Notes under the pieces: generated by a model | What the model saw: only the letters and a program-made list of their open reading frames with translations | Database searches by the model: none | What the model was told of the DNA's origin: nothing | Translations under genes and position numbers: made by a program | Source: Scenedesmus sp. PABB004 | Lineage: Eukaryota | Direction of reading: 5' to 3' | Length of the DNA: 64,000 nt | Assembly: GCA_014905635.1 (NCBI GenBank) | Contig: JABVCE010000003.1 | Location: 1,054,001 to 1,118,000 of the forward strand | Shown here: piece after piece, positions 2,534 to 62,421 of the stretch | Layout: each line of letters starts with the position of its first letter | Position numbering within the stretch: the stretch's first letter is position 1

Positions 2534-5500
2534 ATGTCAAAGCGTGCTGCGCCGGAGGACGCCCCGCCCGAGCTGCCCAAGAAAGCAAAGATGGACGTCG
2601 CGGCGGCCAACGGGGAGGGCATGGCGATCGACGAGAACCTGCACAGCCGCCAGCTCGCCGTGTACGGGCGCGAGGCGATGCGCCGCATGGCGGGCGCCTC
2701 CGTGCTCGTCTCCGGCGCCAACGGCGTGGGCGTGGAGATAGGTGCGACACCGCTCTCATCGTCGCGCGCGCATGCGGGGCCCCAGGCGGCGCGGGCGCGC
2801 GGGGGAGGGGCCGGGGAGGGCGGGCGCATCAGCAGCACGCCCCGCCCGCCCGCACGCGCGCCCGATCGGCCGCGCTCCCCGCGCCGTCGCGTGGCCGCAG
2901 CCAAGAACGTCATTCTCGCGGGCGTGCGCGCGCTGACCATCCACGACGCCAAGGCGGTGGACGTTCGCGACCTCTCGGCCCAGTTCTACCTCACCGAGGA
3001 CGACGTCGGCGCCAACCGCGCGGAGGCGTGCCGGGAGAAGCTGCAGGAGCTGAACAACGCCGTGGAGGTCTCCGCGAGCGCGGCGGAGCTGACGCCGGAC
3101 TACCTCGCCCAGTTCCAGGCGCGCGCCGCCGCTGCTGCGCGGCGCACCGCGCGGGGGTGGTTGGCGGCGGTTGGCGCCGCCGCGGCGCGCGCCGCCGCTG
3201 CCGCCGCGCCCCGGCGGGCGGCGGGCACCGCGCCAGCCGCGGGCGCGCCCCGGCCGCCGCGCCGCCGCGCCGCCGCGCCTCACGCGCGTGCGCGCCGCAC
3301 AGGTCGTGGTGCTCACGGACGCGGGCCTGGAGGAGAGCAAGCGCGTGAACGCGGTCTGCCACGCGCACAGCCCGGCCATCGCGTTCATCCGCGTCGAGAC
3401 GCGCGGCGTGTTTGCGAGCGTGTTCACCGACTTCGGCCCCGCGTTCACGACCTACGACGTCGACGGTGCGGCGGCGCGCCTGCGAGCCTGAGCGGCGCGG
3501 CACGCGGCGCGGCGGCGCGCGGCGGCGCGCACGGCGGCGGCGCGCACGGCGGCGTGCAGGCGTCGCAGCGATGGGCGGGCGCCGCAGCGGCGGCAGCGCG
3601 CCGACGCGCCCGCGGCGCCCGGCCGCAGGCGAGGAGCCGCACTCGGGCATCGTGGCGAGCGTGTCGTCGGGCAGCCCCGCGCTCGTGACGTGCGTGGACG
3701 ACGAGCGCCTGGAGTTCCAGGTGCGGCGGACGCAGCTGCGGCGCCAGCGGCGGCGGCCGCGGCGCCAGCGGCGGCGGCGGCCGTGGCGCCAGCGCCGGCG
3801 GACGCCGCGCTCACGCGGCCCTGGGGGCCGGCGTCTGCCGCCGCCGCCGCTGCGCGCGCCGCGCGCAGGACGGGCAGCTGGTGACGTTCAGCGAGGTCGG
3901 CGGCATGGCGGAGCTCAACAGCGCCGCGCCCATCAAGGTCAAGAACTGCAAGCCGCACAGCTTTGAGCTCGAGCTCGACACCACCGGCTTTGGCGAGTAC
4001 ACGCGCGGCGGCATCGTGACGCAGCACAAGGAGCCCAAGACGCTCGCGTTCAAGCCCCTCGCCGAGGCGCTCGACGCGCCGGGTGCGCGGCGCGCGGCCT
4101 GCCGGCGCGCTGCCTGCTCAGGCCCCCGCCGCCTGCGCCTGCGCCGCGCGCGCGCCCCGCCCTGAGGCCCACGCGCCCCCGCCGCCGCCCGCGCCGCCCG
4201 CCCGCGCCCCCGTCCCCCGCGCCCCTGCCCCTGCCGCCGCCACCCCTCTCCCCGCCGCCGCCAGGGGAGTTCCTGATGAGCGACTTCAGCAAGTTTGAGC
4301 GCAGCCCGCTGCTGCACGTCGCGTTCCAGGCGCTCGACGCGTACGCGGCCGCGTCCGGCGCCCTGCCCCGCCCCGGCGCGGCCGGCGACGCGGAGCGGCT
4401 GCTCGAGCTCGTGCGGGGCCTGGCGGCCAAGAGCGCCGACAAGATTGAGGTGGACGAGCCGCTCATCCGCAAGTTTGCGTCGGGTGCGGCGGCGGCGGGG
4501 CCCGCCGCGCCGCCCTGCAGCCGCGCGCCCGCGCCTACACCCCGCGCGCGCCCGCGCCACGCGCGCCCGCGCCACGCGCGCCCGCGCCACGCGCGCCCGC
4601 GCCACGCGCGCCCGCGCCACGCGCGCCCGCGCCACGCGCGCCCGCGCGCGCGCCGCCGCCCGAGGCATGTGGCGCCGAGCGCCGCGCCCCGCCGCCCGCC
4701 CCGCCGCGGCGCGGGTCCGCAGGCTCGAGCGGCGAGCTCAACCCCATGGCCGCGATGTTTGGCGGCTTTGTGGGCCAGGAGGTGGTCAAGGCGCTGAGCG
4801 GCAAGTTCCACCCGCTGTTCCAGTGGTTTTACTTTGACTCCGCCGAGTCGATGCCCGACGCGCTGCTGCCGCCGGAGGAGTACGAGCCGTCCGGCAGCAG
4901 GTGCGGCGCGCGGCGCGTGGGCGTCGCGCGGCGCGTTGGCTCGTCGCGGCGCGCGCCCTGCCTCCCAGCGCTCGCCTCTCCCCTCCCCTCCCCCACGCAC
5001 GGCCGCACGCCGCCTCCCGCCCGCCCCGCCCCGCCCTGCCCCGCGCCGCGCCGCGCCGCGCCCCATTCAGGTACGACGGCCAGATCGCTGTGTTTGGCCG
5101 CTCCCTGCAGGCGCGCCTGGGCGGGCTGAAGGCCTTCCTCGTCGGCGCGGGCGCGCTGGGGTGCGAGTTCCTGAAGAACTTTGCGCTCATGGGCGTCGGC
5201 GCGGGCGAGGCGGGGCTCGTGACCGTCACTGACGACGACGTCATCGAGAAGAGCAACCTCTCCCGCCAGTTCCTCTTCCGCAACTGGCACATCGGCAGGC
5301 GCGCGGGGCGGCGCACGGCGTGGCGCGCGCGCGCGGGCGGCGGGAGGGCGGGCGGGATGGCGCGGCGCGGGCGGGAGCGCGGGCGGCAGGGGCGGCGGCC
5401 GCGCGGGGGTGCACGCCCGCCCTGCCGCCGCGCGCTGACCCCGCCGCCGCCTTGCCCCGCCGCCGCGCCGCCGCTGCGCGCGCGCGCAGCTCCAAGTCGA

Positions 5501-60900: not shown

Positions 60901-62421
60901 CACGCGCGCCGCGCTCGCTGCCCGCTGCGTGCTGCCGGCTGCGTGCTGCCGGCGGCCGGGCGCGCGCGCCTGGATGGCCGAGTTGGCGGCGAGGGCGTAG
61001 AGGATGTGTCGCTCGTCGTCCAGTGCGAGCCGGTCCATCGGCACCGGCGCGCCAAAGAGGAAGCTCGGCAGGAAGCTCGGCAGCAGCTGCGCCACGCCGC
61101 CCGTCACGCGCACCTGCGGCGCGGCGCGGCGCAGGCACGCTGAGAGGGGGGCGCGCCCGCAGGGGGAGCGCGTCCGCCCCGGCGCCGCCGCCGCTGCAAC
61201 GGCCGCCCCCGCCGCGAGCTAGCGCCCGGCGCGCCGCGGCGGCGGCGGCGGCGGGTGCGGCGCCGCGGCAGCGCGCTCGCGCGCCCAGCGCCGCGCGCCT
61301 TGGTGCAGCGGCGCTGGCGCCAGCTGTCGCTCGCGGCGTAGGCGAGCTCATAGACGTGGCCGTCGGCGCCGCCGAGGAAGATGCGGCCGGCGGCGCTGCT
61401 GGCGAAGCAGGTCATGATGGTGTTGTCGCTCGGCAGGCTGTACAGCGGCATCGGCTGCAGCGACAGCTCCTCATACGCGTCGCCGCCGCCCACGCGCGAC
61501 GGCCCGGTGCACACGCCGAGCAACACGATCTGGCGGCGGCCGCGGCGCGCGGGGGCGGCGTGGGCACGGGCGCGGCCGCGGGCGCGGCGCGCGCGTGGGC
61601 GCGGCGTGGGCGGCGGCTGGGCGGGCGGCTGGCGGCGCACCTCCACGGTCGTGGCGAGGACGAGCACGTGCTGGATGGCGGCCAGGAACACGCCCGGCCG
61701 CGGCCTGGCGAGGCCAACGCAGCAGATGGCCTGCTCCTCGCCGCTGTACTCCACGGGCACGTCGCCGCTGCGCGGGGCGGGCGGCGCGGGATTGGCGTCG
61801 GCTCGCGCCCGCCGCCGGCCGCCACTGCCAACACCCCCGCCCCTGCTGTGCCCGCACCTGCGGTCGTATCGCCAGAGGAAAAGGCTGTTGTCCACGCTCG
61901 CCCAGGCGCGGCGTATCTCGGGGAACACGCCGCAGAAGCACATCGTCTGGCAGGCGCGGTACTTCTCCTGCACCATCGCCGGCAGGTCGGGCATCGCGGG
62001 CGAGACCGCGCGCAGCAGCGACGGCCACTGCGCGGCGGCGGCGGCGGCGCGCGGGTGAGGGGCGGCGGCGCGCGGGCGAGGGGCAGCTCGCGTGCCGCTG
62101 GCGCGCGCTGCCGCGGTCTGCCGCCCCCCAGCGGCGCGCGGCCGCTGCCGGCGTCGCCGCCGCGGGCGCCGCGCTCTCTCTCACCCCGGGCACGGGGAAC
62201 TGGAACGTGTCCTCCCGCCGCGCGTTGCGCACGAGGTCGATGAGGTCATAGTGCTTCGCCTCGTCCCGCGCGACGCCCTTGACGTGGCGCCACGTCTCGG
62301 ACAGCTTTTCGTCGCCGTCGGCGGCGCCGCCCAGCCGGCCCCCGCCCAGCGGCGCCGGGCGGACCTGATCGGGCCGCCCCAGCGTTAGCTCGTGCTGCCA
62401 GAGCGGCGGCGGGGCCGCCAT
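54927..62421 (-). CDS. NUP155: Nucleoporin Nup155/Nup170, many exons
   Basis: CGVFPEIRRAWASVDNSLFLWRY, QAICCVGL..PGVF, GRIFLGGADGHVYELAY, RRPVDVL, SGAHKGLALYISRLLAPVW, LDISDLYNSYAQP..LWDACLEI. Confidence 0.93.
57433..57476. repeat. Interstitial telomere-like (TTTAGGG/TTAGGG) tract in a Nup155 intron
   Basis: aacccccTAGGGTTTAcaccTAAACCCTAacccccttaacccct. Confidence 0.7.

Follow-up and report, generated by a model that had tools for sequence, protein, structure and literature searches.

How common can introns with a GC donor become in a very GC-rich nuclear genome? The question is raised by a 64,000-nucleotide stretch of Scenedesmus sp. PABB004 (contig JABVCE010000003.1, positions 1,054,001 to 1,118,000 of the forward strand; hereafter the window, whose own numbering is used throughout), for which a first-pass annotation, made by a model from the letters alone, had listed at least 22 GC-AG introns in genes such as UBA1, CCT6, NUP155 and CFAP299. 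According to PMC6310983, plants average 98.7% GT-AG and 1.2% GC-AG introns. Sequence comparison confirms both the positions and the frequency within the window, where GC-AG introns are far commoner than the norm of about 1%. They are probably GC-AG introns of the ordinary U2 type (major spliceosome), grown very common under strong GC pressure.

Composition of the window and intron calling

The window comes from the nuclear genome of a sphaeroplealean green alga. The best named protein matches of exon-sized queries came from the sphaeroplealean genera Tetradesmus, Monoraphidium, Raphidocelis and Scenedesmus, and two public protein models were recovered letter for letter. Their source labels name Scenedesmus sp. 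PABB004 as the organism and NUP155 and CCT6A as the proteins; the genome of this alga is given as 78.5% GC, 39.8 Mb and 7,092 genes in PMC12571836. Every 4-kb bin has a G+C content of 75.7-82.0%, and there are no N. Pfam detected a ubiquitin-activating enzyme E1 in fragments that lie in three different frames (2.9-9.2 kb), and elsewhere fragments of CCT6, NUP155, an Obg GTPase and CFAP299/DUF4464. Long stop-to-stop open reading frames are present in all six frames, so open frames are uninformative here and homology is required. In UBA1, CCT6, NUP155 and CFAP299, the G+C content at third codon positions is 96-97% and that of introns 84-87%; the sense-strand intron interiors of these four genes are rich in C (C 46.6%, G 38.3%), with a C/(C+T) ratio of 0.854.

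Introns were called with a purpose-built spliced aligner of proteins to the genome, which scores codon matches and allows affine gaps, introns in three phases and AG acceptors, at an intron cost of 25. It was run under three donor rules, namely GT plus GC, GT alone, and all 16 dinucleotides charged equally (the any-donor rule). The cost of allowing GT only is expressed in BLOSUM62 units. References were full-length homologues, which are partly gene predictions and, by source label, in several cases derived from transcriptomes. A separate junction test comes from an earlier script that was later replaced by the aligner, since its chaining lost exons.

GC-AG introns in four genes validated by homology

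Across UBA1, CCT6, NUP155 and CFAP299, 16 of 57 validated introns are GC-AG, i.e. 28.1% (Clopper-Pearson 95% confidence interval 17.0-41.5%), as against an expectation of 1.2% (p = 7e-18). When the aligner was free to use any dinucleotide with the closest references, it still chose GC at 15 of the 16 GC sites and GT at all 41 other introns, and in multiple alignments conserved gap-free residues span 15 of the 16 junctions, the exception being UBA1 7412. The use of nearby GT donors finds no support in the alignments: the GT-only alignment was worse in all four genes and lost conserved residues, for example at the junctions FEK/DDD and TVQ/EVLDW. Over the whole list of claimed sites, 15 are firm and one is probable by homologue alignment, three are firm by profile continuity, and three are plausible from ab initio prediction only. 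The annotated shares for UBA1 (7 GC donors in 20 introns) and CCT6 (4 in 12) were matched exactly by spliced alignment.

In UBA1, the alignment to the closest reference, P0001, covered residues 1-1039 fully and placed GC donors at 3119, 5299, 5673, 7412, 7744, 8037 and 8619. The slash in the entries below marks the splice boundary.

2534..9232, + strand: UBA1 gene, 21 exons and 20 introns, 7 of them GC; Pfam pieces, P0001 alignment, ab initio model of the same span
3119..3302, + strand: GC-AG intron, CAG/GCGCGC, phase 0; 5/5 references under the any-donor rule; conserved junction FQ/VVV
5299..5489, + strand: GC-AG intron, CAG/GCGCGC, phase 2; 5/5 references
5673..5863, + strand: GC-AG intron, CAG/GCGCGC, phase 2; 5/5 references
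7412..7617, + strand: probable GC-AG intron, AAG/GCGCGC; the least certain of the seven
7744..7958, + strand: GC-AG intron, AAG/GCGCGC; 5/5 references; conserved junction FEK/DDD
8037..8210, + strand: GC-AG intron, GAG/GCGCGT; 5/5 references; conserved junction VPE/VDKLKAK
8619..8782, + strand: GC-AG intron, CAG/GCGCGG; 5/5 references; conserved junction TVQ/EVLDW

With five references, the GT plus GC rule gave 7, 6, 7, 9 and 8 GC donors, and under the any-donor rule all five agreed on GC at six of the seven sites, 7412 being the exception. Allowing GT only cost 187-201 units. The best GT alternative to 5673 was 80 units worse in the junction test, and the GT donor 6 nt upstream of 8619 would remove the conserved VQ. 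As a separate observation, the UBA1 intron 7111-7264 (+ strand) carries a (CA)n microsatellite directly 5' of its acceptor (…CACACACACACACACACCAG/).

In CCT6, spliced alignment with five references gave the following structure:

50370..53826, + strand: CCT6 gene, 13 exons and 12 introns, 4 of them GC; spliced alignment, 5/5 references
50928..51159, + strand: GC-AG intron, GAG/GCGAGC; 5/5 references, any-donor 5/5; in P0514
52261..52439, + strand: GC-AG intron, CAG/GCGCGC; 5/5 references, any-donor 4/5; in P0514
52521..52680, + strand: GC-AG intron, AAG/GCGCGG; 5/5 references, any-donor 4/5; in P0514
53083..53268, + strand: GC-AG intron, CAG/GCGCGC; 5/5 references, any-donor 5/5; in P0514

The any-donor rule returned 4, 4, 3, 4 and 3 GC donors with the five references, and the GT-only rule cost 110-120 units. 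The public model P0514, matched by the window at 683 of 683 residues, has the identical 12 CCT6 introns and uses all four GC donors. The same model (683 aa) fuses CCT6 to a downstream FAM183-like gene (PF14886; 54384-54821, + strand) via a 545-nt 'intron' at 53823-54367 (+ strand), whose GTAA donor overlaps the CCT6 stop codon. CCT6 homologues are 519-535 aa long and end before the fusion point, and in all likelihood the fused model is a chimera.

In NUP155, the closest independent reference, P0242, placed GC donors at 61298, 60969 and 59624, and did so again under the any-donor rule; the GT-only rule cost 140 units.

54927..62421, - strand: NUP155 gene, 21 exons and 20 introns, 3 of them GC; spliced alignment
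59502..59624, - strand: GC-AG intron, CAG/GCGCGG, 123 nt; junction LLQ/ERAPEK
60845..60969, - strand: GC-AG intron, CAG/GCGCGC; spliced alignment; used in P0241
61114..61298, - strand: GC-AG intron, AAG/GCGCGC; spliced alignment; used in P0241

The junction test found no in-frame GT alternative at 60969 or 61298. All 1483 aligned residues of the public NUP155 model, P0241, agree with the window, and with the two GC donors of this model and the four in P0514, six GC donors of the window are already in public models. P0241 reads two in-frame, stop-free introns on the - strand as coding, a 111-nt GT-AG intron at 61530-61640 and the 123-nt GC-AG intron at 59502-59624, which adds 37 and 41 Arg/Ala/Pro-rich residues that are missing from homologues. 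One acceptor of P0241, at 60181, differs by 3 nt. The protein clusters held no transcript contigs from the same organism, and their members besides the public model were 83-91% identical.

CFAP299 (DUF4464) has 5 introns, of which two, with donors at 35290 and 35087, are GC; the GT-only rule cost 104 units with P0382.

34928..35087, - strand: GC-AG intron, GAG/GCGCGC; alignments of P0382, P0370 and P0400; any-donor 7/8; conserved junction GQE/VSGYID
35175..35290, - strand: GC-AG intron, CAG/GCGCGC; spliced alignment, also ab initio

With the eight references, the any-donor rule gave GC at 35290 with three and CA 3 nt away with two, and left the junction unplaced with three. The donor at 35087 was missed by the ab initio finder described below.

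GC donors follow an exonic AG

The donors of the four validated genes follow a common pattern, to which the GC donors keep more strictly. The 41 GT donors have A at -2 in 20, G at -1 in 36, G at +3 in 40, C at +4 in 29 and G at +5 in 40 cases, while the 16 GC donors have these bases in 16, 16, 16, 15 and 16 cases, respectively. The GC donors thus show the compensation pattern of U2-type GC-AG introns, fitting the remaining consensus more strictly than GT donors do. An exonic AG precedes 16 of 16 GC donors as compared to 17 of 41 GT donors (Fisher p = 3.9e-5), and seen from the other side, the GC share is 16 of 33 after an exonic AG and 0 of 24 elsewhere. It had been claimed that every GC donor follows an exonic AG and that most read GCGCG, and this proved correct over the full list: each of the 22 coordinates marks the base with which the intron opens at AG/GCG, with 20 GCGCG and two GCGAG (50928 and 22773). 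The C at +4, noted there as a poor match to canonical U1 pairing, does not set GC donors apart. G at +3, C or A at +4 and G at +5 are common to both classes, and since +4 is C in 29 of 41 GT donors, GCGCG is the local GTGCG consensus with one T>C change.

The sense strands of the four genes hold 27 occurrences of AGGCG[CA]G, of which 16 are donors, and 515 occurrences of GCG[CA]G, among which the same 16 are donors, so that specificity is carried by the exonic AG; AGGTG[CA]G occurs 19 times and is a donor 15 times. About 10 AGGCG[CA]G are expected by chance from base frequencies over ~19 kb, close to the 11 unused sites, and the 16 donors are therefore an excess. At +2, C accounts for 48% of donors in AG context as compared to a C/(C+T) of 85% in intron interiors, so T is still favoured at this position. 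GC introns lie in phase 0 in 14 of 16 cases versus 20 of 41 GT introns (p = 0.008), and they follow a CAG, AAG or GAG codon. Separately, the median length is 181.5 nt for GC-AG and 148 nt for GT-AG introns (p = 0.01). An assignment to U12-type introns was rejected: all 22 donors read GCG[C/A]G and none has the ATCC of the U12 donor (/RTATCCTT).

GC donors in other genes and the rate across the window

Two further genes were assessed by profile continuity across the predicted junction, and three by ab initio prediction. The ab initio finder scores codon log-odds together with matrices for donors and acceptors, with a variant that charges 3.3 bits for a GC donor; when one gene at a time was left out, it recovered 51 of 52 introns exactly.

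22306..22401, + strand: GC-AG intron, Obg GTPase, CAG/GCGCGC; TIGR02729 positions 36-100 in the upstream exon, 102-134 downstream; also ab initio
22773..22912, + strand: GC-AG intron, Obg, CAG/GCGAGC, phase 1; TIGR02729 position 168, split codon 169, then 170
18073..18221, - strand: GC-AG intron, ARMH5-like gene (the 'plastid protein' of the first-pass annotation); profile continuity with PF22915; also ab initio
11476..11557, - strand: putative GC-AG intron, lectin copy A (malectin domain); ab initio only, 3.3-bit penalty included
13716..13797, - strand: putative GC-AG intron, lectin copy B (tandem duplicate); ab initio only, 3.3-bit penalty included
46816..46945, - strand: putative GC-AG intron, secreted DUF642-like gene; ab initio only, 3.3-bit penalty included

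The Obg intron at 22773 splits the Gly codon of the P-loop, and splicing rebuilds GFPNA-G-KS. In the ARMH5-like gene, positions 1-43 of PF22915 are matched by the exon that ends at 18222, down to its last residue, and the following exon takes up the profile at position 44. Reading through the lectin copy A site at 11557 reaches a stop after 20 codons, and the sequence around the GC site is identical in both copies. The secreted DUF642-like gene has no Pfam match. In PTH2, which had been reported to use GT only, splicing from the GT donor 20473 to the acceptor 20337 (- strand; ATCG/GTGCGG … CGCAG/CC) indeed restores conserved residues.

The two secreted lectin genes (9816-11857 and 12053-14290, - strand) are tandem duplicates with a malectin domain and a weak C-type lectin match. 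They differ at 9 of 1350 exon and 1 of 692 intron positions, too few for a comparison of the paralogues to distinguish exon from intron, and this near identity suggests a very recent duplication or gene conversion.

Across the window, the ab initio models that reach a score of 100 or more number 21 and contain 126 introns. Of these, 29 were called GC, and 21 of those calls belong to the claimed list. Six of the 8 additional calls, made with the penalty in place, lack an exonic AG. Two candidates, 20447 in PTH2 and 35102 (a stand-in for 35087), both without exonic AG, were rejected as false, and none of the 8 was counted. Ab initio counts err in both directions, and a fair estimate for the window is that 22-24 of about 126 predicted introns, or 17-19%, are GC-AG, with wider bounds of 22-29 introns, or about 17-23%.

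For a comparison of orthologous introns, metagenomes were scanned with a CCT6 exon, which gave 80 loci, 15 of which were aligned. These 15 have 0-2 introns each as compared to 12 here, and two of the intron positions are common with the window, with GT on both sides. The closest relatives (L001, L007, L002-L004 and others) are 73-84% identical in the query exon; L001 and L007 are also GC-rich (71-75%), and L007 has one possible 69-nt GC-AG gap (ACG/GCGGCG).

Discussion

From the observed positions, their frequency and the conditional donor rule, I infer both a spliceosomal mechanism and a mutational cause. AT-to-GC mutational or gene-conversion pressure would keep turning the T at +2 into C, and this C may be tolerated only where the other donor positions match the local consensus, foremost the exonic AG. 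Selection would remove a C at +2 unless the exonic AG and the G at +3 and +5 preserve enough contact with U1 (and U5/U6). The effective donor code would be AG/GYG[C/A]G, and donors without an exonic AG would have to keep GT. The first-pass annotation had proposed extreme GC pressure as the driver of a relaxed donor recognition. The GC-AG excess does have its obvious correlate in the extreme GC content, but 'relaxed' does not describe donors that are stricter than their GT counterparts in exonic context and never occur outside it. According to PMC7072748, genome GC content and splice-site GC correlate with r ~0.40 across plants and weakly across kingdoms; PMC3167603 and PMC2490688, as far as they bear on this point, are consistent with the compensation pattern of GC-AG introns.

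Several observations weigh against this reading. At UBA1 7412, the any-donor rule chose GC with two of five references and GG at 7424 with three; a GT donor at 7427 scored about equal in the junction test, and the site adjoins a length-variable region. With more distant references, NUP155 yielded 5-7 GC calls, the extra ones being spurious and lying in weakly conserved stretches, and without the GC penalty the ab initio finder called too many GC donors. The 15 aligned metagenome CCT6 loci have no intron at any of the four CCT6 GC positions. Both lectin sites have an in-frame GT alternative 6 nt upstream, with an unusual A at +5, and the DUF642-like site at 46945 has one 39 nt upstream (TGG/GTGCGG). 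The claim that reading frames can only be restored with GC donors is weakened at 7412, 13797, 11557 and 46945, where there are credible in-frame alternatives.

A further point against tolerance by an ordinary spliceosome is that C at both +2 and +4 makes for weak textbook pairing with U1, and this favours an explanation in which altered U1 or U6 small nuclear RNAs (snRNAs), or a reliance on U5/U6 over U1, make GC donors recognised as well as GT. The near-equal use of the two classes after an exonic AG (16 GC and 17 GT) would fit this, and a variant U1 isoform has been proposed for the GA-AG donors of Eurytemora and Oikopleura, according to PMC7072748. Such an explanation is nevertheless unlikely. 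The absence of GC from all 24 donors without an exonic AG is the opposite of relaxed recognition and the usual signature of normal snRNAs, and the +4 C is the majority base in GT donors as well. Within the 64-kb window, no Rfam family, those of snRNAs included, reached its gathering score. The data can do without variant or relaxed recognition, which sits badly with the tighter context around GC donors. It is similarly doubtful that a co-adapted spliceosome, with a changed U1 5' end or a donor definition dominated by U5/U6/Prp8, lies behind AG/GYG[C/A]G and goes beyond tolerance; if it did, the lineage would be a natural system for studying 5' splice-site evolution under extreme base composition.

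Homology fitting amid abundant GC could also produce an artefact, in which splicing would in fact start at GT sites close by, or these stretches would not be introns at all. The 515 GCG[CA]G sites in four genes offer ample material for this, and the in-frame alternatives at the four sites named above and false ab initio GC calls such as PTH2 20447 would be expected from it, but it is very improbable given that the any-donor rule still returned GC at 15/16 and GT at 41/41 sites, that GT-only models cost 104-201 units per gene and delete conserved residues, and that the AGGCG[CA]G sites not used as donors are about as many as chance predicts, leaving the donors as an excess. Moreover, AG/GCG is expected at ~0.25% of positions from base composition and was seen at all 22 sites. 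That the C at +2 is an assembly or polishing error, or is made into T by C-to-U RNA editing, is scarcely credible, as nothing found here speaks for it beyond the mention in PMC7072748 that editing may in general be involved at non-canonical sites, and it would have to strike +2 of about a quarter of donors, solely those after AG, and the same C in both lectin copies.

The preferred reading, major-spliceosome introns under GC pressure, has consequences for both splicing and gene annotation. The restriction of GC to donors after an exonic AG gives a simple picture of the degeneracy that the major spliceosome would tolerate. In genomes of this kind, stops are rare and introns can be read in frame, and gene finders that are restricted to or biased towards GT will mis-model them; this is seen here in two public models, namely that of NUP155, which retains one GT-AG and one GC-AG intron, and that with the CCT6-FAM183 fusion.

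Comparison with known systems

The introns of the window resemble known U2-type GC-AG introns in that they start with GC, end with AG, follow a stricter consensus than GT introns and have no U12 motif; they differ in frequency, with 28% of 57 validated introns and about 17-23% of the roughly 126 predicted in the window, as against about 1%. For green algae, the supplement of PMC6310983 gives counts of major non-canonical splice sites of 1179/69,321 in Coccomyxa, 496/8,831 in Micromonas pusilla, 36/5,375 in M. commoda and 19/67,746 in Monoraphidium neglectum. A GC-donor share of about one quarter would top the green algae and plants found in that source (plants 1.2%, highest green-alga row 5.6%). 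The literature search, with bioRxiv supplements and subscription journals outside it, returned no report that GC-AG introns are frequent in this or any other green alga, and term searches of PMC12571836, PMC13315243 and PMC12636532 gave no mention of GC-AG.

The excess of a single non-canonical donor dinucleotide has parallels both in Eurytemora affinis and in Oikopleura dioica, which are rich in GA-AG introns (PMC7072748). In those species the dinucleotide is GA, GC content is not connected with it and the proposal is a changed U1 isoform, whereas here it is GC and the donor rule needs no variant.

A close counterpart is Emiliania huxleyi, for which PMC4028052 gives 56% GC-AG among 241 curated junctions, which its authors blame on a 65% GC genome, and 13 junctions, 9 of them GC, confirmed by RT-PCR. 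Both are very GC-rich algal nuclear genomes where the GC share of donors runs to tens of percent (here within the window), acceptors are AG and gene predictors tuned to GT-AG mis-annotate. E. huxleyi is a haptophyte with 56-60% GC-AG introns, while the alga studied here is chlorophycean, with a higher G+C content (76-82% in the window) and a lower GC-donor share; the E. huxleyi junctions are backed by expressed sequence tags and RT-PCR, and those described here by homology and annotation alone. The two would form a pair of independent cases in which extreme GC content goes along with mass conversion of GT to GC donors. On this reading, the alga of this window would join E. huxleyi as another GC-rich algal lineage that independently came to use GC donors on a large scale, through a mechanism that is not new.

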